Below, piece after piece: positions 6,355-62,546 of a stretch of 64,000 bases of DNA. The position numbers were made by a program, and so were the translations under genes. Each line of letters begins with the position of its first letter. The stretch's first letter is position 1. The stretch comes from Isurus oxyrinchus (taxonomy: Eukaryota): positions 37,448,001 to 37,512,000 of the forward strand of contig JANJGN010000026.1 of the NCBI GenBank assembly GCA_026770705.1. Direction: 5' to 3'. The notes under the pieces are model-generated. The model was not told the origin of the DNA. It saw nothing but the letters and a program-made list of their open reading frames with translations, and did not search any database.

Positions 6355-6898
6355 GGTTTTTGTGCGGTGTTCTCGCTGTGATCTGACGCTGTGCCTCACT
6401 GCACAGTAATACACCGCCCCGTCCTCCACACTCAGTTCGCTTATATTGAGGTAACCGTTCTTTTTAGACTGGTCAGCAGCCGCCAGGTATCGTCCTGAGA
6501 TTTTATCCTCCTTCAGTGCTAAGACATTGGTAATAATCCAACTTGGTGGCTGTGCTGTCTGCTGCCGATACCATTGCATGTAATCCACACTCCGATCTGT
6601 ATATTCACAGTGTAACTGCACCGAACCACCTTCTAACATCATTATTGCCATCGGGGCCTGAGTTACTACGTCCTCACATAGTCTACCTGTGAGGGGAGAG
6701 GAACGAAGTGTCAAAAGGTTAAGAAGAGGTGTGCGCATGTCAAAGCTTCCGTCTAACAGCTATCAATAATATGGCAATTTATGATAGATAATTATATTAA
6801 CCGTTATTCGGAACATTTGCATTAATCTGCTAATACGCCTTGATTAAATTAATTCAGCACTTACTGTCGAACAGCGCAGCCAGTATTATGAGAAACAT
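6355..6898 (-). CDS. Intact TCR alpha/delta V segment (family Z); leader 6865-6898, V exon 6394-6686, RSS 6355-6393
   Basis: MFLIILAALFDS/RLCEDVVTQAP…VQLHC…QWYRQ…DGAVYYCAVR; phase-1 GT-AG intron; CACAGCG, 23-bp spacer, ACAAAAACC. Confidence 0.93.
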
Positions 6899-7096: not shown

Positions 7097-7110
7097 GCGC
7101 CTTCTGCTGG
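7097..7110 (-). promoter_or_regulatory. CTCF motif upstream of V promoter
   Basis: CCAGCAGAAGGCGC on the minus strand. Confidence 0.7.
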
Positions 7111-14028: not shown

Positions 14029-14478
14029 ATGTGCTCCCCATGTTCCTTACTGCTAATAATGGTCTTGCTGTCCGGTGAGTCAATGTTTAAATGGTCAATG
14101 TCTGTTCCTTGTGTTACCTTCACTCCCAGATATTTGATACATTCTGTGTTTTGTTGCAGAAACAAATGGTAAAGATTCAGTGTCCCAGGATCCCCCTGAA
14201 TTCACGGTTCTGGACGGACAGAGCATAAAACTGGATTGTAATTACTCTACAGCTGATGTTCCAACTCTGTTCTGGTACATCCAATACCCCGAAGAAGGTC
14301 CGAGATATTTAATGAGGATATATAGCTCGGGGGGTGCAGAGAAGTCTCCAGAATTCGCAGACAGGTTCTCTGCTGTTTTACACAAAGGAAACAAAATGGT
14401 TCTTTTAAATATCGCCGGGGCTCTTCTCTCGGACAGCGCCGTGTGCTGCGGAGATATAGCGGATGTCGTACAAAAACC
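14029..14478 (+). pseudogene. TCR V pseudogene (family D): open frame, but YFC and heptamer deleted
   Basis: Leader 14029-14074, exon from 14160 DSVSQDPPE…LDCNY…LFWYIQYP…DSAV; ~25-bp deletion at ~14444 relative to the 25248 paralog; nonamer ACAAAAACC 14470-14478. Confidence 0.9.
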
Positions 14479-14501
14479 CCACTGGGATTTCCAGTTAGTG
14501 C

Positions 14502-14515
14502 TCAGAAGAGGGCGC
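14502..14515 (+). promoter_or_regulatory. CTCF motif 23 bp downstream of RSS nonamer
   Basis: TCAGAAGAGGGCGC. Confidence 0.6.
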
Positions 14516-15228
14516 TCTCACACCGACAAACAGAAGCAATAACTCAGCCTGTGAGAGCCACAGAACCTTAAATAAAATATCAAAACAAAGACAACGCCGA
14601 AGAAGGGCGGGTGAGCAGCAACTGAGGGATTACATTAGTTGACTTTAACTTGCAAATATACTAAAAATGAATTCCACAAATAAATTTGTATTGCGCTAAC
14701 TCACATTTAGTCTTTTGATGATCTTTCCTTGCTTCTCTGAACTCTTAAGCAGCCTTTTCTCCATCTCCACTCTCTCCTTCGAGTTCCCTTTGTCAAAGCC
14801 TGTACGTAGTGTCCATTTGACCAGAGTATTTTGCTGCTTCAGAAACAGTGTGTAGAAAATGAAGACATTTCACCAACTTGTGTTTGCACTCTTTAAAACA
14901 AGCCCCGAGCATAGGTTTCGAGTGTCCATTAAAAGTTTTCTGACACCATTAACAAAGCAGTGTTTCTGCCTTGTAACAACGAGACCAGGAGATGCAGTCC
15001 CATCCCTATCCCTAACTACGTAACCATCCCTCTTATAAGAACACTGGCCATAGCCCAGCTCTTGTTGTTTCCATTCGCTGACAGCCGACTCCTACCTACA
15101 GGTCTTAAAGGATCACTGGGGACAGAAAGAAGTGAGGTTAGAGGATCCTGAGACTTGATACTTGATGATGCAAATTAAAACGAGTTTCTCCTAATCACAC
15201 TTTCTATTTTACAAAACGGACATCAGCA

Positions 15229-15750
15229 ATGCAGCCACCCAGCATCTGGGTTCAAATGGGGAGGGGGAGTGGTGGTTGGTGGTGGTGGGTGGTTGGGGGT
15301 GGCCAGGAGCGAGGCATTTCGGATAGGTAGTTAAGGAACAAACTTATTTCGTCTCTTTCCTGAATCAAGGTTTCAATCTGAATTCTAAAGAACCTCCAAT
15401 CAGGCAATTTCCTGTTTGTGCATGATTTCAGATCTGAGCCCTGGAGATTTTGTCACTCAGCTACTGTCCTCAAATGCTTAGACCGAAGAGAAGTGGCTGC
15501 TTTAAATATCATCTATGATATTTCTTGTGGAGAACTGTGTTTTATTCTGGTACTGGCTGGTATTTGCAGGAAAAGTCTTACTCATGTTTTCAGGCAATCG
15601 GAGAGAGAAAACAAATTAGCAACAGCACAATTCAGGCGGCCAGATCTCTCTCTGAGCAGAGAAAGTGGACTCTAAAGAGCTGATCAGAAGCAGGACTCAC
15701 AGCTGAAAGATGTTTCTGATCCTCCATCCAGACCGACTGGCGTCACACTG
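15229..15750 (+). pseudogene. Degenerate delta-like V pseudogene
   Basis: Promoter, leader and exon start (CAG/ATCTGAGCCCTGGAGATTTTGTCACTCAG) homologous to the 23630 gene; FWYW remnant. Confidence 0.65.
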
Positions 15751-16214
15751 ACTGTAGGATGACATCACAAATGTTACAAGGCGATGTCATGGACACCGCA
15801 AAATAACGCCTCATGGACGGATGCTCTGAAGTATGCGCACCCCACTCCCTCACACCCCATCAATGCTGAAGCCCCCTCGCAGCTTCACTTTGTGATCACA
15901 AGTCCCAGAGCCCCGTGTCTGGCGGACACAGTGTAACTGGTGTTGGGCTCAGTTTGATGCACAACAGCGATGACTTCAGCAGGTGACTCTCTTGGTTTCA
16001 GACTTCCTACAGTTATTTTATTCAAGTCGATAGCATCCGACACATGAATCTGAGAATCACTTTAGTGACCATATTCCTGGATATTTTACTCTTTCCTGCG
16101 TGTGTGTGATCACTATTTCTGACACAATATTTCACACATCAGACCCGTTATCTTCTGCTAGATGTACTTTGCTTTATTATATTTCCTTGTATGATGCTAA
16201 ATTGTAATCTTTGT

Positions 16215-17375
16215 TCATTTTGCAGGATGTTGGCTAGGTCAAAACTTATTGCCTATCCCTAATTGCCCTTGAGAAGGTGGTGGCGACCTGCCTTCTTGAA
16301 CCGTTGCAGCCTGTGGTGTAGGTAGACCCATGGTGCTGTTAGGCAAGGAGTTCCAGGGCTTTGGCCCAGCGACAGTGAAGGAACGGCAATACATTTCCAA
16401 GTTAGGATGGTGAGTGCCTTGGAGGGGGACTTCCAGGTGGTGGCGTTCCCATGTATCTACTACCCTTGTCCTTCTGGCTGGTAGTGGTCGTGGGTTTGGA
16501 AGGCGCTGCCTAAGGAGCCTTGGAGACTTCCTGCAGTGCATCTTGTAGATGGTACATATGCCTGCAATTGTTCGTCCGTGGTGGAGGGGATGAACGTTTG
16601 TGGATGGGGTGCTAATAAAGCGGGCTGCTTTGTCCTGGATGGGGTCAAGCTTCTTGAGTGTTGTGGGAGCTGCACGCATCAGGCAAGAGGTGAGCATTGC
16701 ATCACACTCTTGACATGTGTCTTGTGGACAGGCTTTGGAGAACCAGGAGGTGAGTTACTTGCCGCAGGATTCCTAGCCCCTGACTTGTTCTTTTAACCAT
16801 TGTGTTTATATGGTTACCCAGTTCGGCTTCTGGTCAATGGTGGCCCCCAGGATGTTTATAGTGGGGGATTCAGTGACTGTAATTCCATTAAACATCAAGG
16901 GGCAATGGTTGGATTCTCACTTGCTGGAGATGGTCGTTGCCTGGCACTTGTGTGGCGCGAATGTTACTTGGCACTTGTCAGCTCAAGCCTGGATATTATC
17001 CAAATCTTACTGTATTTACATATGGACTGCTTCAGTATCTGAGGATTCGCGAATGGTGCTGAACATTGTGCAATCATCAGTGAACATCCCCACTCCTGAC
17101 CTTATGATGGAAGGAAGGACATTGATGAAGCACCTGAAGATGGTTGGGCCAAGGACTCTGCCGTGAGGAACTCCTGCAGTGATGTTTTGGAACTGTGGTG
17201 ATTGACCTCCAACTATCACAGCCATCTTCATTTCTGCTCGAGATGACTCCAGCCAGCGGAGAGTTTTCTCCCTGATTCCTAATGACGCCAGTTTTGCTAG
17301 TGCTCCTTGATGACACACTCAGTCAAATGCTACCCTGATGTCCGCGGCAGTCAGCATCTCCTCACCCTTTCACCT
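16215..17375 (-). mobile_element. 5'-truncated non-LTR retrotransposon (CR1/L2-type RT)
   Basis: GVPHGRVLGPTIF…FINVLP…MFTDDCT RT motifs; 3' tail shared with the SINE. Confidence 0.88.
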
Positions 17376-17426
17376 CAACATCCTTTTAAAATCAGTTACC
17401 TTCTGTCGAAGTCTATATCAGACACT

Positions 17427-17790
17427 ATGTGCCCTCTATGGTCCTTTCTGATAATGGTCATACTCTTGGTGATTCAATATTTAAACGTTCATTGTCTATT
17501 CTATGTGTTAAATTCAATTCCAGATTTTGACACATTATTTGTTTTGTTACAGTAATAAGTGTTGCTGACGAAGTGTCCTTGGAACCCTCTGAGTTAACTG
17601 CGTGGAAGAACAGGGCATAATGCTCAACTATAGTTATTCCATATCTTTGAGTTTTCTCCAACTCTGTTGGTACACCGATATTCCGGGCAAGCTCCGAGAT
17701 CTTTACTGAAGCGCTTTAACTCGGGCCATGGAGCCAAGCCTCAAGGTTTACCAGACCGGGTCCCTGCTGATTTGGACAAGGCTGAAGTCA
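17427..17790 (+). pseudogene. Truncated TCR V pseudogene (family D)
   Basis: Leader MCPLWSFLIMVILL; frameshifted exon ending at …PADLDK; promoter replaced by the LINE. Confidence 0.78.
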
Positions 17791-17906
17791 GCAATACAAA
17801 TGTTTCATAATAAACCTGTCAGTTTTTGTTTATCCTCAGCCGCGGAACAAAATAAAGCAGCAGATAGGCATCCAAAACACTTAACTGGCCAGTAAATACT
17901 CGCTGA

Positions 17907-18422
17907 GGTTTTATCTGACGCTGGGCCTCACAGCAATGTAAGAGACCGCACCTTCCTCCACACTCAGGCTGCTTATATTGAGGAAACCAGACTGTTTAGA
18001 ATTGTCAGCTGCACTAGTTATCCTCCTGAGGTTTTATCTTTTTGTTACTTTGCTAGTGATCCAACTGAGAGGCTGTGTCAGTTTCTGCCGATACCATTGC
18101 ATACTGTACGTATCCTGGTCTATATATTCACAATCTAACTGCACCAACCCCCCTTCTGACACAGTTCATGTCACCGCTGACTGAGTTACTGGATGCGCAT
18201 AGTCCGCCTGTGGAAGTAGATGAAGAAAGGAGCAGAAATTTAAAGAGGATCGATCTAAACGTGTATTCTTCTGTATGAGTGTGTGTAAATTCGCATTTCC
18301 CAAACTGTCGTTAATTACATTAATTCCTAGTATAAGCTCTTTGCAACAATCTGCTAACCTATCTTGATAAACATAGTCCAATATGTACTGTCCAACAGCG
18401 CAGCCAGTATTATCAGAAACAT
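17907..18422 (-). pseudogene. TCR V pseudogene (family Z)
   Basis: Leader MFLIILAALLD; frameshifted exon with MQWYRQ; heptamer CCCAGCG, spacer largely deleted. Confidence 0.85.
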
Positions 18423-18551
18423 GTCTGACTGAATCTCTCTCAGTTGAATGTGAATGGAATGAGCCAGGGCTTAAGAAGAAGAGAGGGACCCCGGGCTCTG
18501 TTCAGCTCATTGTTACACCCACACAGCTCCAGGACCCAGGCCCTTTGTGAC

Positions 18552-18832
18552 CATAAGGCCACAAGAGCAGAAGTAGGCCATTCGGCCTATCGAGTCTGCT
18601 CCATCATTCAATGAGATCATGATTGATGTGGCATTCCGCAACTCCACATTTCTGCCTTTACCCAATAACCCTTGATTCCTTTACTGATTAAACATGTGTC
18701 CATCGCAGCCTTGGGTATACTTAAGGACCCAGCCTCTACAGCCCTCTGCGGTAAAGAATTCCACAGGTTGACTGGCCTCTGAGAGAAGAAATTCCTCCTC
18801 TGTCTTAAATGGGCGACCCCTTACTCTGAGAG
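18552..18832 (-). mobile_element. CR1-type LINE 3' fragment inserted in a V promoter
   Basis: Similar to 210-535; splits the GTGACC/TCACT promoter sequence that is intact at 7015-7030. Confidence 0.8.
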
Positions 18833-18908
18833 ACCTCACTCGGGATACCATCCCTTTTGGTTTTGACGTTGGTGACGCGTGACTTTCTAATGAGCATGCT
18901 TGGGTTTA

Positions 18909-18922
18909 GCGCCCTCTGCTGG
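18909..18922 (-). promoter_or_regulatory. CTCF motif upstream of V promoter
   Basis: CCAGCAGAGGGCGC, consensus. Confidence 0.8.
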
Positions 18923-19870
18923 TCGATTCTGTTCATTCCGGCTTAGAATCGGGGCCATCGAGTGGGTTTCGGGTTTCTTGATTTACATATCAAAACACTA
19001 ATGCCATGTATGTATTCCCAGAAATTTATATTGGATCTAATCAGACTTAGTCCTTATTTGTTAATGTTTATGGCAGAAAGTAATGATGATCATTTATAAA
19101 TCACTGTTTAGCCACCAATGATCTACCATTTACATGAATGTCAAAATATTGGAGAAAGTAAACTGGAATGGCACCAGGGCTGACGACTTTCAACGTGAGC
19201 AGGCTAGAGAAACTGTTATTAGTCTTCTTCTGTCAAATGATTAAAGGAGACATTTAATTAAAATACTGAAAATGATAAGAAATTTGATGTAATAGATTGC
19301 GTATAACTGTTTCCATTAGCAGAAAATTCGAAAATCCAAGCGCACCAATTTGAGAGCAAAAATATGGGGAAAGATTATATTAAACTATTACATTGCCATT
19401 TCTTCAGAGCTGGAACCACTGCTATGAGGAAAATGCGGGACGAAATGTGAATTTGATCACTCTTTCAATGAGGCATAGACACATGATAGGCCGAATGGCC
19501 TCTGTCCTTGCTTTAAGATTCCAAACCATTCCTGTCCCTCCCACTTTGTTTGTCATCAGTCAGTTGAACAGTGAACAGGTGCAGAATGGTCAGAGACTCC
19601 TGCAGATTCAACCGTCGCTCTATCCGCTCCACCAATTCGGGGTGCATCTGAGAGTCACCGCACAGTTCACGCAATATTGAGACTGCGGTATCCCCACCCA
19701 CAGCTTCCGTTTGCTGCCGTCGCTCTGACCCGATTGTGTTATTGGAGAGATTGCTGCCGCTGGTCCATTCCTGTCATTGGTTGGGTCAGCAGCGCAGTGG
19801 GACGGGAACCTGTATTTCTGCTCATTCAGAGGATTTCTCGCACTGCGGAGTTACAGACTCAGGAAGTATC

Positions 19871-20395
19871 ATGGGGAAAGTCTCTCTCCGCTCCTCATCA
19901 TTATCTCAATTCCGTCCCAGTGAAACACCATTCTCCCCTTGACTGCTCTAACCCAGATGCTACCGTCGGTAAAAAAAAATGGTGATGGTGATGACGATTA
20001 TGTTTATTAATATGAGACTGACGCTGATTGTTGTTATGGCTATTGTGTTATGTTAGAATGGAGCCACCAAGACACAATGGAACAACCGGTTGCTGAAATA
20101 ACTGCGAAGACGAAATGTCACACGAACTTGCACCTTGGAAACAAGCGATTCTAACCTTAAGATGCACTGGTACAGTCAGCGCCCCAAGCAGCCTCCACAG
20201 TGCATGCTTTATATTCTGGGAGTGAAACTATACAGACGCACCGACATCACATGTTGCTTTTCAGCTTCATTACATAATACAGCCAAGAGTACCGAGCTAT
20301 TGATCTGCAGTACCCTGATCTCTAACAGCGCGGTAAATTTCTGTGCCATGATGCCCACGCTGCTGCAGAGATACAGCGAGTCCCGTACAGAAATC
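19871..20395 (+). pseudogene. TCR V pseudogene (family H)
   Basis: Leader lacks donor; exon from 20057 WSHQDTMEQ, frameshift, MHWYSQ…SAVNFCAMMP; CACGCTG, 24-bp spacer, ACAGAAATC. Confidence 0.87.
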
Positions 20396-20419
20396 CCACA
20401 CTGAGTTCCAGTTAGTGTT

Positions 20420-20433
20420 CCTGCAGAGGGCGC
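20420..20433 (+). promoter_or_regulatory. CTCF motif 24 bp downstream of RSS nonamer
   Basis: CCTGCAGAGGGCGC. Confidence 0.75.
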
Positions 20434-21179
20434 TCTCGCACCGATAAATAGGACCAAAAACCCCGACTCCGCAGTGTGAGCCACAAGCACCGTCGTAAAA
20501 TTGGAACAGAGCACAAACCCTTCAAGAGCAGATAATGACCACTTCAGCGTTAATATTAATGTGCGATTTCAACTGGCGTATCAATGGTGCCTTAACTCAC
20601 CATTTTTTTCTTTGGATGATTTTCCCTGCAGATTGTTTTTTTTTCACCCGCTGTCTCCACCCGTTACTCAAAAATTCAGACATTCCTCCTGCCATTTTCT
20701 CCAGACCATCGATACTTCTTTGTACACTAACTCAGGACGACTCTAACCCTACTGTCCATAGATTCAGCCTCAGTATTATCCGAGGTTGTTAATGAAGGTT
20801 TCGTTTATTATTGTTTGAGTTACTAATCCTGACATATCTGTGTTCACCCTGCACTCCGTCAATATGGAATAAATACGAAAGTACCGCAGCTCATATACAG
20901 AGACATGGTTATATCATTTTCAAAGGGAACATTATTATTGACGTCAGCTCCTTACAATTCGATTCGATGTGTGACGGCACCTCCTGCTGCGGCCCTGCTC
21001 ACAGCTCCCGTTTGCTGCCGTCGCTCTGACCGGCTTTGCCTGCCCTGTGTTTTTGGAAAGATTGCTGCTGCTGTTCTCTGTTTGGCATTGTTTGGATCAG
21101 CAATAAAGTGGGGCAGAGCTCGGCATTTCTGCTCTGACAGACAATTTCCCGGACCGCAGCATTGTAGAAAGAAGGACCA

Positions 21180-21685
21180 TCCTGCGGAACCATATCACTC
21201 CGCCCCTCAACATTCTATCACTTCTCAAAAAGTATTTCCTTCCCAGTGAAACTCCATTCACCCCATGACTGCTGTAAACCAGATGCAATCATTGATATGC
21301 TGATGATGTTGCTGCTGATCATGAAATTATGACTCTTATTAATATTTACGTCATAATGGAGCCAGTAAGACATGGTGGAACAGTCGACAGCTGAAATCAC
21401 GGTTGAAGAGGAACGTAACATCAGCCTAAACTATACCTTCAAATCAAGGTGTTCTCACGGTCACATGTTCTGGTAAAGTAACACGCCTGGCACCCTCCAC
21501 AGTACGTGTTTGATCTCTATGGAGGAAGAACAAACTGGAACCCCAAGGTTTTCATTCCGGTTTAGTAAAACTACGAAATCACCAAGTAAATGATCTGAAA
21601 AGCCCTGCTCTCTAACACCGCCGTGCATTTCTGTGCCGGGGTCCCGACACGGCTGCAGAAACATAGAAGACCCTGGACAAAGTCC
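21180..21685 (+). pseudogene. TCR V pseudogene (family H)
   Basis: WSQ*DMVEQSTAEITVEEERN…MFW*…TAVHFCA; splice sites lost; GACACGG, 24-bp spacer, ACAAAGTCC. Confidence 0.82.
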
Positions 21686-21700
21686 TACACCAATTATTTC

Positions 21701-21714
21701 TCAGCAGAGGGCGC
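21701..21714 (+). promoter_or_regulatory. CTCF motif 15 bp downstream of RSS nonamer
   Basis: TCAGCAGAGGGCGC. Confidence 0.72.
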
Positions 21715-21834
21715 TCTCACACTGCAATAATTCACCCTTAAGTGTGGTTCAGAGGGGTCTTTCCAAAGCTGCAATAAAACACAAAATGCAATATTCTGAA
21801 GTTCATGTTTACAATTATATTAGCTTTTGATCTC

Positions 21835-22218
21835 AACTTTTTTATCCTTTCATTGGATGTGGGCATCGGTAGCAAGGCCAGCATTGTCGTCCATCCGGAA
21901 TTGCCCTAGAACTGAGTGAATTGCTATTCCATTTCTGAGGGCTGTTATGAGTCAACCACATTGTTGCGTGTCTAGAGTCACATGTAAACCAAACTAGGTA
22001 AGGATGGCAGATTTCCTGGACATTAATGAACCAGATGAGTTTTTAGAACAATTCATGATAGGTTCATGGTCACTAACACTGAGATTTGTATTCCAGACTC
22101 ATTAACTGAGTTCAAAATCGGCTGCTATGTTGGGGTTTGAGCGCATGTCCCCAGGTCGTTAGCCTGGGTCTCTAGATAACTAGTCCAGTGACACTGCCAC
22201 TACGCCACCGTCTCCCCA
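21835..22218 (-). mobile_element. tRNA-derived SINE (same family as 12290)
   Basis: Reverse-complement similarity over head, body and tail. Confidence 0.8.
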
Positions 22219-22542
22219 CAGAGATTGCAATGACCTCGAAATTGCAATAAAATAAACTTTACAAATGCAGTTGTGGAGCCTTGACTGATTCTAAGTATTT
22301 ATGTATCTTTTCACAGTCAATCTCTTCTCTCCCCTGGTTTCCACTCATCGTTCAAAAACGTTTAATTTTCGTTGCCCCAGTCTTTAGACTGACGATAGCA
22401 AATATTTGTTTCTGCTTAGCATAATAACTCAGAACTGCAGCAACCCGGCTTCCCACAAACAGGAACTGTCAGGTCAGGCCATTGAATAACAAAAGGATCT
22501 GTCAAACTCTGTCTACCGACATCTGAGCACGTCTCAGATTAT

Positions 22543-22556
22543 CTACGAGATGGCGA
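22543..22556 (+). promoter_or_regulatory. Possible CTCF motif
   Basis: CTACGAGATGGCGA. Confidence 0.4.
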
Positions 22557-23629
22557 CCGATCACAATATCCCTCTTGTGGATCACAGCAAAGCATTAAGC
22601 TTAGTCCTCTGTTTCTCGAAAAAGCATAGTGTATTTGCCATAAATCGAATTCAAAGTGTTGATATCTTGCACAAAATTTGCTGAGAAAGTGCACTAATCA
22701 TCACAAAAACACATTCACATGTCGAAGGATTGGAACCTGATATTAGACAGAGCGTAGAGTAAGTGAATAACAAGTGTGGATGCTGGGGAAAGAATGTGAA
22801 AATGTGACTGAAAGACGCTGAAGCCTTTCACTGTAATGGCTTCGGCGTCATATCCGTTAATACGATGAGTGAAAGCTACAGGGAAAGGCTTTTCTGGTGG
22901 CTGGTTAATGTCCCTTAGGCTTGTGAACCTGCTCTTTGAGCTTTGGCCCTATAAATTTGAGTAAATGGGCGTAAAATCGCTCTAAAGCGCCGATGTGGCG
23001 TTTGGGCCAATCTCTCTTATAGAAAATCCAAAATCAGAGGGTTCTGGTTGATTAAATAAACGATTACAGACACAAAAAAGGACTCTAATTAACCAGAGAG
23101 AATTTAATCATTTTAAGCAGAAGGTGATGGTGAGCGAGTACCTGCCTACATCGGGGAGGAGTTTGATCTTTAAATCTGTTCATTTGTCTGTTCAGTAACA
23201 ACATTTATCGCTGTTCTAATATGACAGATTTATAAACCACTCTGACAAAATCTATAATCATAATTAGCTTACTGGTTAAGTGGTTCATGAGTAAAATCTC
23301 ACTGGAGCCAGGGTCCTCTGCATACTGCTGGTAAGATTACCATCAGTGTTGAGATCAGATTGTGCAGAGTAAACTAGATCCACGAATAATCCTATTGTGG
23401 ATAGTTAGAATGACCAGACATGGACATAATAGTCACCATTCCCTCTGTAAAACGGAAACATACCCCGTATAAAGTCACTGACTGTAGTCCAGCTCATGGT
23501 GTTTCCATTAATTGACAAATGGAAGTGAGGTTAGAACATCCTGAGACATGACAGCAGATTATTGAGGGTGGGGTTTAGAATGGGTCTCTTGAAATATCCA
23601 GCTTCTCTTTTACAAAGCGGACAGCGACA

Positions 23630-24133
23630 ATGCGGTTACTCAGCATCTGCGTTGTGTGGGGAGCATTTCTGATAGGTAATTGTGGACCACACACATTTCA
23701 GCTTTTCACACATTTTTCAAACATGGTTTAAAACTGAATTTTAAATAATTGTGTGTCTGATCTGCTTCGGCATTGAACATGTTTTTCAGATCTGAGTCAT
23801 GGAGATTCTGTCACTCAGCCTTTGTCCTCAAATGTTAAATCAGAAGGAAAAGATGTGACTTTAAGCTGTACCTATGATACCACATGGAACGACTATTATT
23901 TATCCTGGTACTGGCAACACCCAGACGCAAAACCTGAGTTTATATCGTGGAAATACTCGAACGGTGGTGAAGATAAAGCAAATTTTGCTAAAAGCCGTTT
24001 CTCTGCAGAGCTTGAGTGCGACCAAACTCACCAGCTTAAACATCTTGTGTCTGCAGCTGACTGACTTTGCCATGTATTACTGTACTATCACATTCACAGC
24101 GATGGAACACAGTCTCACACCTGTACAAAAACT
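23630..24133 (+). pseudogene. Delta-like TCR V with a single FR3 frameshift
   Basis: Leader 23630-23675 MRLLSICVVWGAFLI; exon from 23790 DLSHGDSVTQ…LSCTY…SWYWQ…RFSAELE, frameshift ~24016, …DFAMYYC; CACAGCG, 23-bp spacer, ACAAAAACT. Confidence 0.88.
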
Positions 24134-24359
24134 GTCTTTACTCTGTGTGTGGGAGTTCCTCTCTGATGGGGTTTATACAGAATCTCTGGCAGATGTAGCC
24201 ACAATGTTCAGTGGCGCTGTCAGCCGCTCAAACACAAACCAAGGGGAAATCACATTCACCTCGGATCAAACTGTCAACAACTGTTTGCAGGAGCGGCCAA
24301 GAGAAGAAACTGCAGAATCCGATCGGACCGACGATCATCACAGAATCAGATTTGAAATG

Positions 24360-24470
24360 CCCACTCTCAATAACTTGTTGCTATGTCTCAGGATGCTCTC
24401 ACCTCACTTCCTGGTGTCTTCATTGGTCTGTGAGATCTGTCGGTGGTGAACTGACTGACACCCCGAACTG
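24360..24470 (-). promoter_or_regulatory. Inverted copy of the delta-like V promoter downstream of the RSS
   Basis: Reverse complement GGAAGTGAGGTGAGAGCATCCTGAGACATAGCAACAAGTTATTGAGAGTGGG matches 23521-23572. Confidence 0.7.
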
Positions 24471-24584
24471 GATTACAGTCATGTAGGGTAATGGCTGGAC
24501 TTTTAGACCCGGGTCTGAGGGGAATCAAATCCTGGTCCGTTCATTATCACCAGAAAACTCGGGATTGTTAAACTGGGATTGGGA

Positions 24585-24722
24585 TCAAAGGTTATCCGAG
24601 TTAGACGGGAATGTGGAAATCGAAACACAAGAGGATCAGCCATGATCTTATTGAATGGTGGAGCAGGCTCGAGGAGCCGAATGGTCTACTCCTGTTCCTA
24701 GTTCTTACGTTCTTATGTTCTT
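24585..24722 (+). mobile_element. CR1 3' tail fragment
   Basis: GATCAGCCATGATCTTATTGAATGGTGGAGCAGGCTCGAGG…TTCTTATGTTCTTA. Confidence 0.75.
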
Positions 24723-25171
24723 AATCGTGATAGAAAACATTCCAGCATGAAGGGGACATTCTGAAGCTCAATGGTCAGTGGGAGAACTCTGAACCTGGGG
24801 CTTGTTATAGAGATCATAGTCACAACCTGATGAACGTCGCTCATTGTGTATAAACTGTCTCTGATTCATCAACACACTCTGATCAAATGAAATCCGTGAA
24901 CAGGCCACGGTCAAAGACTCCAGAAAACTGATAGGGGAGATGGGGAAGGGTTGTTCAATATGACAGACAGGCACAAAGCTACACCAAAAGGTAATAAGTA
25001 AATGAAAGTATGAAAATCGATTATGGTACAAATGCAAGTTGAATTCAGCTAATATAATTCCACAAGTGTTCCTCAGCTCTTCTTGTTTGTTGTTTGTTTT
25101 GGATGTTTTCGGAAGGTCCCTGTGACTCTCACTGTGGAGGCTGCTTTATTTTCCTACTTATCGGTGCGAGA

Positions 25172-25185
25172 GCGCCCTCTAGTGG
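25172..25185 (-). promoter_or_regulatory. CTCF motif 24 bp downstream of RSS nonamer
   Basis: CCACTAGAGGGCGC, consensus. Confidence 0.82.
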
Positions 25186-25209
25186 ACCCCAGATGGAACT
25201 ACCAATGGG

Positions 25210-25685
25210 GTTTTTTGTACGGGATCCGCTATCTCTGCAGCAGTGTGGGCTTCATGGCACAGAAATACACGCCGCTGTCGGACAGAAAAACCCCGGCGAT
25301 ATTTAAAGTAACCGTTTTGTTTCCTTTGTTCAAATCAGCAGAGAACCTGGCTGGTAATTTTGGAGACCTTTCTTCATTCCCCGAGCTATATATTTTTAGC
25401 AAATATTTCGGAGCTTCCCCGCGATACTGGACGTACCAGAACAGAGTTGGGGAACCGTAGGTTGTCAAGTAACTGCAGTTCAGCGTTATGCTCTGTCCTT
25501 CCAGAATCATTAATTCAGAGGGATCCTGGGACACTAAATCCGCGCTATTCGTTCCTGTAACACAAATGCAAAATGTTTCAAAAGTGAGGGAGTAAATATA
25601 ACCCCTGTAAATACATTGACTATGTAGACATATACTCACCAGGCAACAAGGCCATTATTATCAGTAACGTACATGGTGAGCACAT
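25210..25685 (-). CDS. Intact TCR alpha/delta V segment (family D); leader 25640-25685, V exon 25248-25554
   Basis: MCSPCTLLIIMALLPG/TNSADLVSQDPS…LNCSY…LFWYVQ…DSGVYFCAMKP; CACACTG, 22-bp spacer, ACAAAAAAC. Confidence 0.93.
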
Positions 25686-29296: not shown

Positions 29297-29310
29297 CTGC
29301 CCTCTTGTGG
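29297..29310 (-). promoter_or_regulatory. CTCF motif upstream of V
   Basis: CCACAAGAGGGCAG. Confidence 0.75.
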
Positions 29311-32125: not shown

Positions 32126-32139
32126 CTGCGCTCTGGTGG
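32126..32139 (-). promoter_or_regulatory. CTCF-like motif upstream of V (paralogous to 29297)
   Basis: CCACCAGAGCGCAG. Confidence 0.55.
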
Positions 32140-43377: not shown

Positions 43378-43880
43378 AGTTTTTGTACAGTATCCGCTAT
43401 ATCACTGCAGCATTGTGGCTTCATGGTACAGAAATACACGGCGGTGTCAGAGAACAGGGCTTTGATAATCATTAACTCAGTAATTTCGGCAGCTTTCCTA
43501 AACGTCGAAGAGAATCTCTCTGTAAAGTCTGGATTCGCTTTGCTATCGCTCCATAGGGATAAAACACAAACTGTGGAGGCTGCCCGGGCTGCTGACCGTA
43601 CCAGAAGAGATAAGGGCTGGGGCCGCTGGTTTTCAACGTGCACTTTATGGTGACATTTCCTTCCTGTTCAACCGTCATTTCAGGTACTGACTGCTCCACT
43701 GTATCTTTATGACTCCATTCTGACATAGATGATGACAATATTTATCGTACATTATCATAACAAGCACTTTGCTATTAACGATGTTTGAGATACGGCAGCC
43801 AGGGGCAGAATGGATTTTTACTGGGAAGCATATACTTACTGAGAGGCGATATAATGAGTGGCGTGAGATAGTTCCACCAG
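43378..43880 (-). pseudogene. TCR V pseudogene (family H)
   Basis: Leader start ATC; WSHKDTVEQ…IKC…LFWYGQ, one frameshift ~43550, DTAVYFCTMKP; CACAATG, 24-bp spacer, ACAAAAACT. Confidence 0.88.
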
Positions 43881-46855: not shown

Positions 46856-47267
46856 TTCATTAGTGATGCAGACTGAAATCAGGACCGAATACATGAGCAA
46901 CAGGATTTGGAGTGGTTCTGTAAGAACGTACCAGGTAGTAGGAAAAGCTTTAAGTTGACATGAAAGGCGAGAAAAAGGAAATATGCACAATTTTCAGAAA
47001 GACTGAAGACACGAGGGGTAAGGAATAACTGGGAAGGGAAACATTTGGAAAAGTAAAAAAGAAGAAATAAGGCATCACCAATCCATTTCTCAATCTCATA
47101 TCTATTAAAAATACAAGGTGCAATTACAAACCAATATGATTGTGCAAGTGGACCTCACTTGCTGCTGTTATTGAGTGCTGTGTTTTGTTGCAATTTTAAG
47201 AATCTCCCTGTCACTCTCACTGTGGAAACTGAATTACCGGTGAGCACAGGCTGAAACTGCCAGTGAG

Positions 47268-47797
47268 GGTTTTTGTACGTGTTTCGCTGTAGGTCTGTAG
47301 CAGTGTGAGCTGCATGGCACAGAAATACACGGCGCCGTCAGGGATCATTGTGTTATTGATCGTTAGTTCTGTAATCCTGTTATTTTTATTAAACATCGAA
47401 GAAAATCGATCCGTGAGGTCGGTGTTCCTGTGCACATTCTCTCCAATAAAATGAAACATGTACATTGGAGGTTTCCCGGGGTGCTGACTATACCAGTACA
47501 CATAAGGGTTAGGATCGCTTGTTTTCAAGATGCAGGTTAGTGTAACATTTCTCTCCTCTTCAACAGTTATTTCAGCAACCAGCTGTTCCACTGTATCTTG
47601 GTGGCTCCATTCTAATATAAACAAAAGCAATAACAACAATCAGTATCAAATTGACTAACATAAACATCATCACTGTTATTTTACTAACAATAACACCTGG
47701 GTCACAGCAGTCAGGAGGAGAATGGAATTTTACTGGAAAGGAAATACTTACTGAGAAGTGAGATAATGACGAGGAGTGGAGCGACTCTGTTTGCCAT
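47268..47797 (-). CDS. Intact TCR alpha/delta V segment (family H); leader 47752-47797, V exon 47308-47611
   Basis: MANRVAPLLVIISLLK/WSHQDTVEQ…TLTC…YWYSQ…DGAVYFCAMQL; CACACTG, 24-bp spacer, ACAAAAACC. Confidence 0.92.
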
Positions 47798-62069: not shown

Positions 62070-62546
62070 ATGTGTTCCCTGTATGTTTTACTGATAACAA
62101 TGGTCGTGCTACCCGGTGCGTCTGGACTAAAATCCTCAGTGTGTGTTTCATGGGTTATATTTACTCACAGATTGTTGACACATTCTATATGTTGTTACAG
62201 GAACGAGTGGCCAAGATTCAGTTTCCCAGGATCCGCTTGAATTAACATTTCAGGAAGGACAGACCATAATATTGAACTGCAATTACACAACAAAATACCC
62301 TTCAACAACTCTCTTCTGGTACATCCAGTATCCAGGGGAAGCTCCGAGATATTTGCTGAAGAAGTACGGCATGGGGAAGGGGGATAAGTCTCCAGATTTC
62401 CCTGACAGGTTTTCTGCTGATTTGGATCAGGACAAAAAAACCGTTCCTTTAAATATCGACGGGGCTCGTGTGTCTGACTCTGCCATGTATTTCTGTGCGT
62501 TGGTGCCCACAATGTAACAGAGACGCAGTCAGTCCCTACAAAAACC
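62070..62546 (+). CDS. Intact TCR alpha/delta V segment (family D); leader 62070-62115, V exon 62201-62507
   Basis: MCSLYVLLITMVVLPG/TSGQDSVSQDP…LNCNY…LFWYIQYP…DSAMYFCALVP; CACAATG, 23-bp spacer, ACAAAAACC. Confidence 0.94.

Follow-up and report, generated by a model that had tools for sequence, protein, structure and literature searches.

In the heavy-chain loci of mouse and human, variable (V) genes of VH clans II and III, such as VH5-2/VH81X, carry a CTCF-type core at a fixed, short distance behind the nonamer of the recombination signal sequence (RSS; PMC6746451; PMC4914699; PMC11153149). In mouse, a weak VH RSS with such an element within 20 bp has more contact with the recombination center; removal of the element abolishes VH use, and its addition makes a barely used VH dominant, rescuing a weak RSS (PMC11153149). 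The state of the element is tied to the VH clans, and factor binding may offset poor RSSs (PMC4914699). Most published work is cited here from excerpts of the papers, and statements about their content extend to those excerpts. [quoted passage not shown] Two of its V clades, termed D and H, share one 3′ module made up of the V end, an RSS with a 24-bp spacer and a CTCF-type core that starts 22-25 bp past the nonamer.

Like the VH elements, this core is restricted to particular clades, co-oriented with its V, carries a CpG at its 3′ end and is lost or weakened in some members. The differences are that it belongs to TCR alpha/delta V genes of a cartilaginous fish; that in mouse 17-19 bp separate the nonamer from a motif written two bases earlier, and in human 19 or 48 bp; that it occurs on both strands, whereas >98% of mouse VH sites point one way; and that, unlike at VH elements, the heptamer and nonamer are consensus-like but the spacer is 24 bp. 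The mouse Tcra/Tcrd locus (TEA, EACBE; PMC10516640; PMC7515734) is alike in that its J-alpha array has a reverse site at the 5′ edge, CTCF-like repeats in reverse orientation lie 3′ of C-alpha, and some V families have co-oriented sites upstream; its V-region elements are described upstream of the Vs, with no mention of RSS-adjacent ones in the excerpts, whereas both designs occur here. Mouse Igk (PMC11153149) is alike in that its Vs lie in both orientations, and its capture of Vs by short-range diffusion at loop impediments may have a parallel here, but its RSSs are unusually strong and 0/103 Vk genes have an RSS-proximal element, whereas here an off-length RSS has one. [quoted passage not shown] Among human VH genes, the 44 open ones all have 23 bp, and 24 bp is confined to pseudogenes (PMC2212390); here, by contrast, intact genes have 24 bp as the norm of the family, a length also read in horn shark. 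Our literature search, which left uncovered most of the nurse shark locus papers and part of the PMC10322711 supplements that may bear on spacers, found no report of CTCF sites at fish TCR RSSs or of a 24-bp V family. PMC2435157 contained nothing on 24-bp spacers.

CTCF-type cores in the window

Cores were scored by their mismatches to the consensus CCASYAGRKGGCRS, as printed in PMC6746451. At two or fewer mismatches the window contains 23 matches, compared with 8.3 ± 3.0 in shuffled sequences, of which 0/100 reached 23. The V regions of the window's families have the hallmarks of TCR alpha/delta V genes, namely a V-set exon with Cys/Trp/Cys, a leader intron and a 3′ long-spacer RSS, and one homolog carries the name TCR alpha chain-like. 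An earlier note on this stretch had singled out four Vs with a CTCF motif 15-24 bp beyond the nonamer and spacers of 24 (by homology), 24, 24 and 22 bp. These Vs, and those that qualify the pattern, are as follows.

14160..14445, + strand: family-D V exon, pseudogene; frame open until a deletion of the Cys codon, V end and heptamer
14446..14478, + strand: RSS remnant with nonamer ACAAAAACC; 24-bp spacer (14446-14469) deduced by homology
14502..14515, + strand: CTCF-type core, 2 mismatches, 23 bp past the nonamer
20356..20395, + strand: RSS CACGCTG-24-ACAGAAATC of a frameshifted family-H V
20420..20433, + strand: CTCF-type core, 1 mismatch, 24 bp past the nonamer
21646..21685, + strand: dead RSS GACACGG-24-ACAAAGTCC of a decayed H-type V
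21701..21714, + strand: CTCF-type core, 1 mismatch, 15 bp past the nonamer
25172..25185, − strand: CTCF-type core, perfect match, 24 bp past the nonamer
25210..25247, − strand: RSS CACACTG-22-ACAAAAAAC, alternatively 23 bp with CAAAAAACC
25248..25685, − strand: intact TCR alpha/delta V gene of family D, with leader, intron and an open V exon
43378..43417, − strand: 24-bp RSS of an H-type pseudogene, CTCF core deleted; a counter-example
47268..47307, − strand: perfect RSS CACACTG-24-ACAAAAACC of an intact H V; core lost in 3 genomic copies
47308..47797, − strand: intact family-H V gene
62508..62546, + strand: RSS with 23-bp spacer, not followed by a core; its V, of subfamily D0, is intact

All four cores were found where the earlier note had placed them, each in sense to its own V. 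The core at 21701 lies only 15 bp past its nonamer because 9 bp of the upstream flank have been deleted (gap in the near-identical copy L196). The spacer lengths hold as given, except that the signal ending at 25247 also reads as 23 bp because of an extra A in two of its three genomic copies; the copy at 32.23 Mb lacks it. As examples the four Vs are unequal: the one at 25247 is open, and those at 14445, 20356 and 21646 are pseudogenes with deletion, frameshifts and stops (the heptamer at 21646 is GACACGG). The coincidence of core and off-length spacer that the note had drawn from them exists at the level of families, but the note had missed the core-less 24-bp Vs at 47307 (open frame) and 43417 (pseudogene). 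Behind the RSS at 47307 a deletion near 47240, flanked by two CACC repeats, took out the core, which makes this V a natural knock-out. The "decayed remnant" of a core reported behind 62508 proved to start within the nonamer; aligned with the modules, it covers the end of the nonamer and the upstream flank, with a gap where the core would stand, and it was rejected as a positional homolog. D0 is a separate subfamily of D, with a flank devoid of core in all three lineages seen.

Distribution of cores and spacers across the locus

Relatives of the window's Vs lie in islands over 23.9-40.3 Mb of C26 and on several smaller scaffolds; in roughly evenly spaced 10-kb samples, 10/80 bore a V and 70/80 did not. 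The V genes of C26 form duplicated islands spread across ~17 Mb, and copies of the window block that are 97-98% identical lie near 32.2 and 34.5 Mb. One scaffold, C242, combines D/H-type and other Vs with inverted NAR-TCR cassettes, D, J and C-delta segments, a J-alpha array and C-alpha; together with the IgH-type Vs noted below, this gene mix fits the shark antigen receptor complex of PMC12227049. Our table of V regions has 321 entries, drawn from the window, 30 loci found by search and 180 fetched stretches. A core was counted when it had two or fewer mismatches, lay on the sense strand and was ≤50 bp from the nonamer; weak antisense shadows and Vs near a locus end were excluded beforehand (17 and 5 of 250 in the first pass). 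The RSS was readable in 203/321 regions, the remaining 118 having scored worse than 3 and been left out. Vs were called intact if they had 91 stop-free codons ending at Cys, the C...W pattern and a strong seed match; NAR-TCR Vs have no seed and were not scored for intactness. In a delta-type family, three signals called as 25 bp, and counted as such, probably have 23 bp and the nonamer GCAAGAAAA.

A core was present in 97/128 D/H Vs vs. 1/193 others, where the background rate (0.004 per 50 bp in the 70 V-free samples) predicts ~0.5 and ~0.8, respectively. RSS-side cores are thereby confined to clades D and H, and in every D/H copy with both a readable RSS and a core (83/83) the two are 22-25 bp apart. 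The spacers divide along the same line. Among 105 readable D/H signals, 82 depart from the canonical 23 bp with 24 bp, alongside 9 at 23, 8 at 21, 3 at 22 and 3 longer, whereas the 98 readable signals of other families comprise 80 at 23 bp, 12 at 22 and 6 of other lengths. A genome-wide RSS pattern with free spacer length returned 60 matches, every one on a contig with Vs; the spacer was 24 bp long in 52 of them, 23 in 6 and 22 in 2. A nonamer-plus-core pattern returned 12, all in the locus, against 0 for its reversed control. Although 87/128 D/H regions fail the intactness rule, 28 of the 41 intact genes have a CAC, a 24-bp spacer and a nonamer with no more than one mismatch. Off-length signals outside D/H, including nine 22-bp NAR-TCR Vs, have no core (0/18). 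Counted by lineage, 31 combine an off-length spacer with a core, 19 have an off-length spacer and no core, 0 have 23 bp with a core and 48 have 23 bp and no core; the lineages share ancestry, and a Fisher P of this table is not used as evidence. Three of the four 23-bp lineages within D/H are the D0 subfamily, and the fourth, an H lineage, keeps the module, with 2/4 fetched copies passing the cut-off. The association of spacer and core, looked for over the full V set, is thus strong at the family level.

One module in two families

The earlier note had described D and H as having a common 3′ module despite differing exons, and both identity profiles and trees confirm this. D and H are 40-66% identical in the exon, 68% from −40 to −20 relative to the heptamer, and 85-92% from −20 to +40; D and D0 are 52-78% identical in the exon and ~45% behind the nonamer. 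H genes are 95-99% identical to one another over the RSS vs. 61-90% in the exon. In trees that are weakly resolved and carry no formal clade test, the exons group D (with D0 inside) and H as long-stemmed clades, whereas in the module D and H are intermixed and D0 sits on a long branch. The simplest reading of this mosaic is an exchange across the end of framework 3. Because one module is shared, the 24-bp state has effectively a single origin rather than many, and the note's own warning that its four cases were homologous is upheld.

Conservation of the core

The alignment used to gauge constraint comprises 43 lineages, most of them pseudogenes, after 8/51 rows without the core span were left out. 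At the seven fixed core positions 13/301 cells differ (4.3%), and at the degenerate positions 40/257 differ, 23 of these still falling within the consensus. The corresponding counts are 30/344 for the nonamer, 197/1046 (18.8%) for the linker and 331/1342 for the distal flank. A contrast of this kind between core and linker has been reported for mouse VH (PMC6746451). The core CpG is kept in 36/43 lineages, compared with 21-30 for six other CpGs. In two-part CTCF sites a TGCAG-type upstream motif stands 5-6 bp before the extended core. A stretch at about that spacing, GGCAGTTCC/GGCAGTACC in one H branch and GGGAGTTCC/GAGAGTTCC elsewhere, may be such a motif, judging by eye from the examples in PMC11417384. 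The conservation of the core supports constraint, although with non-independent lineages that are mostly pseudogenes it is not proof of CTCF binding.

Register of the 24-bp spacer

The D/H heptamer sits at +15 from the Cys codon in 94/105 signals, which is also its usual place in the 23-bp family B and in D0, and the heptamer position in expressed/productive zebrafish Va genes (PMC10322711). D/H nonamers are mostly exact. Compensation on the J side was ruled out, as 86 of the 91 J segments on C242 have an ordinary 12-bp RSS. Six loci with intact frames (L043, L048, L056, L059 and L062 in D, L015 in H) have the first CAC mutated and a second CAC two bases on, a possible 22-bp register.

RSSs read through in other species

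RSSs of other species were read from predicted proteins that run through the signal. Because the spacer is 24 bp, heptamer and nonamer stay in one frame (TL, 8 residues, TKT); this signature occurs in horn shark (P0003), followed by HTESS..CSAEGAL, i.e., the module itself. A second record (P0009) also gives a 24-bp reading. A 23-bp spacer with a module-like peptide in register was read in skate (P0026; QKVALGVAVSAH, then a stop), bamboo shark (P0015), P0117/P0151 (SADGAL) and P0176 (GDQQRARPH). P0044 also has 23 bp, with a poor match to the module peptide; chimaera P0177 and P0193 have 23 bp and both stop short of where the core would lie; the smooth-hound reading (P0157) is 22 bp, with an unclear flank. 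P0164, a D0-like protein of a different record, shares the core-less flank of D0. The best matches of these proteins among the loci studied here are 45-76% identical where tested, and contigs of two other organisms (B and C) cover the RSS with a gap-free spacer. A protein search with the RSS read-through region alone gave no match. Because 23 bp plus motif is read in other chondrichthyans, the core seems older than the extra base.

Among teleost-type read-throughs, which have 22-bp spacers, 13 of the 39 whose tail is long enough match a peptide on our short list of those compatible with the core; the offsets of some are scattered, and one is probably a chance match. Taken together, the HQRE, STRG and PLEG frames spell a core ~34 bp past the nonamer. 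This suggests that percomorph TRAV genes (P0034, P0070, P0120, P0088, P0103 and others) may carry a CTCF-type core ~34 bp behind a 22-bp RSS.

Orientation of cores and a second CTCF design

RSS-side cores are always in sense to their own V, with 39 on the + and 32 on the − strand of C26; the genome-wide RSS pattern matched 25 times forward and 35 times in reverse. The VH-type arrangement, in which all sites face the recombination center in one orientation, does not hold here, and because the cores point both ways about half of them would be neither convergent nor in deletional orientation. The notion that a shark TCR locus has a stall-and-cut arrangement like that of mouse VH is accordingly borne out as to a conserved, co-oriented, RSS-side CTCF-type element, but one-way scanning fits poorly. 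On C242 a perfect reverse core at 656,329 (L160, −) marks the J-alpha array's 5′ edge and is the only site at ≤1 mismatch within 560-760 kb of that scaffold, a position resembling the mouse TEA element (PMC10516640). Some 15 kb 3′ of C-alpha lies a 43-bp tandem repeat of ~289 copies (L171-L172; C242:764,112-776,676) whose unit contains a reverse-facing CTCF-like motif, at one mismatch in 11 units, a possible boundary array. The reverse anchors of C242 could pair with forward V cores.

Families A and E, which have 23-bp RSSs, carry co-oriented cores on the promoter side, in the window 550-1100 bp upstream of the heptamer:

7097..7110, − strand: promoter-side co-oriented core of the intact family-A V at 6393, ~720 bp upstream of its heptamer
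18909..18922, − strand: promoter-side co-oriented CTCF core of a family-A V (23-bp RSS)
29297-29310, − strand: promoter-side co-oriented core, family A/E
32126-32139, − strand: promoter-side co-oriented core, family A/E

A sense-strand core within 1.5 kb upstream was found in 11/16 lineages of A and 5/6 of E, a few being a neighbor's module. Two CTCF designs thus exist in one locus, split by family, and because 23-bp families have promoter-side cores, help from CTCF would not be unique to off-length Vs.

Expression

A contig of organism A has a leader joined to an H exon across a GT-AG intron at ~98% identity; that it is RNA is a guess, and such splicing does not prove rearrangement. No RNA records were listed for an intact H V. 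V ends at J-alpha junctions, sought by matching four runs of organism A to 10 kb of the array, gave repeat-derived matches only, and four supplements of the nurse shark TCR-alpha paper contained no matching V strings.

Explanations for the spacer and core

The reading we favor, with a probability of about one half, is that selection on spacer length was relaxed by a long-standing RSS-side CTCF element. This core likely binds CTCF and in that way would keep D/H Vs close to the J-alpha recombination center, so that a 24-bp signal, if mildly weakened, can probably be cut all the same. The CTCF element would have come first, on a 23-bp RSS; one base would later have been added to the spacer in a shark lineage; and module exchange between D and H, together with block duplication, would then have spread the 24-bp module. 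That order would make the link permissive and historical rather than one of case-by-case compensation. As Vs and cores face both ways, V capture is more likely to proceed through stalled loops and short-range diffusion, as in Igk, than through linear, one-way scanning. Several points weigh against this reading. Ten of the 28 intact CAC-24 genes have their core deleted (3) or carry 3 mismatches in it (7), which makes the core dispensable, on recent time scales at any rate, and seven more intact 24-bp genes have lost the first CAC. According to a secondary account, joining drops drastically at 24 bp in one study, and another in the same account found that a one-base change of the spacer lowers joining only moderately (PMC7753069). 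The cross-species spacers come from protein rather than DNA, and the skate core hinges on the type of a stop codon. Moreover, the V copies are non-independent, and alternative haplotypes may account for some of the scaffolds; the sampling deliberately sought D/H loci, a few through a motif pattern, so that family proportions differ from those of the locus; and the assembly leaves the V array (C26) and the J-alpha scaffold (C242) unjoined.

It is possible, though we think it unlikely, that the coincidence is neutral, i.e., that the core serves general folding or insulation, shark RAG tolerates 23 ± 1 bp and the 24-bp spacer hitch-hiked on an exchanged module. The nine NAR-TCR Vs that use 22 bp with no core, the promoter-side location of cores in A and E, the homogenization of the module between families and the perfect RSSs of core-deleted H genes all agree with such an account. 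Against it stands the fixed distance of 22-25 bp between nonamer and core in all 83 copies that have both, a register that skate and horn shark apparently share; this argues for a role linked to the RSS. Also, D0, the only D/H subfamily with an apparently old 23-bp spacer, is the one devoid of the core, which fits a link but represents one event. The earlier note had proposed that the motif compensates for a suboptimal spacer. In its strict form, in which 24 bp cripples the RSS and the CTCF site is kept since the Vs cannot rearrange without it, this seems improbable to us. The lineage table (31 off-length lineages with a core and 0 at 23 bp), the joint presence of 24 bp and core in horn shark and in the present genome, and the mouse precedent of a weak RSS with a CTCF element (PMC11153149; PMC4914699) speak for it, but the table mirrors one shared module, three of the four 23-bp D/H lineages are D0 alone, and the fourth retains the module. 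Also against it are the intact 24-bp genes that persist with a deleted or weak core, the core-less state of 18/18 off-length signals in other families, and the apparent pairing of the motif with 23 bp in skate, bamboo shark and several other records.

Two further accounts concern the signal itself. RAG might cut at the second CAC of CACACTGCT (+17, heptamer CACTGCT), so that the functional spacer is 22 rather than 24 bp, and it is true that two intact-frame lineages lost the first CAC and kept the second (CTCACTG, 5 intact copies; CCCACTG, 1) and that 22-bp spacers are present elsewhere in the locus. This is very improbable, as CACTGCT has three heptamer mismatches and lacks T at position 6, the single base favored in SARP-seq (PMC10536018), lineages with CACAGTG, CACATTG or CACAATG have no second CAC and still have 24 bp, +15 is the usual heptamer position in family B and D0 as well, and CACACTG appears to occur with 23 bp in relatives. 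Least credible is that 24-bp Vs no longer rearrange and are amplified relics or conversion donors: the large share of D/H regions failing the intactness rule and the failure to recover a rearranged transcript would agree, but the 28 genes with open frame, CAC and near-perfect nonamer, the higher identity among H genes over the RSS than in the exon, and the organism A contig with its leader joined to an H exon argue otherwise.

Other features of the locus

The family-B RSS at 24095 is followed ~65 bp on by an isolated RSS-like string with a 25-bp spacer (24200-24240, +). Within the TCR alpha/delta region there are also intact V segments of IgH type, with 23-bp RSSs, at L097 (C26:27.35 Mb), L119 (C26:31.41 Mb) and C242:584,698-584,988. 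NAR-type V domains that look prejoined in the germline occur at L111 (C26:30,055,874, −) and L144 (C26:37,903,660, − and 37,909,395, −); in these, the V continues into a J-like GSGT motif and a splice donor, with no RSS. The NAR-TCR cassettes of C242 (L177-L190; 426,000-551,500) are tandem and inverted, ~21-23 kb each; their NAR-type Vs have 22-bp spacers, and CTCF-like motifs lie on each cassette's own strand, distant from the RSS.

Significance

RSS-adjacent CTCF elements are known from mammalian Igh, where they figure in the idea that loop impediments serve to tune weak RSSs. A clade of shark TCR V genes with VH-like geometry would date this design to the early jawed vertebrates and extend it to T cells. 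A 24-bp spacer that runs through a whole family, intact genes included, and is shared with horn shark is also an unusual natural test of the 12/23 rule. The genome has built-in controls, namely 24 bp with a core, with the core deleted and with a CpG-mutated core, and 23 bp with and without a core, so that one repertoire experiment could separate the effects of spacer and CTCF. Whether chromatin folding, and not the strength of the signal, gates the use of these genes, i.e., whether they form a class of shark TCR Vs in which one extra spacer base weakens the RSS and only the adjacent CTCF site switches it on, we consider doubtful; if it were so, the RSS-side CTCF design would predate the split of sharks and bony fish and would not be a speciality of mammalian Igh.

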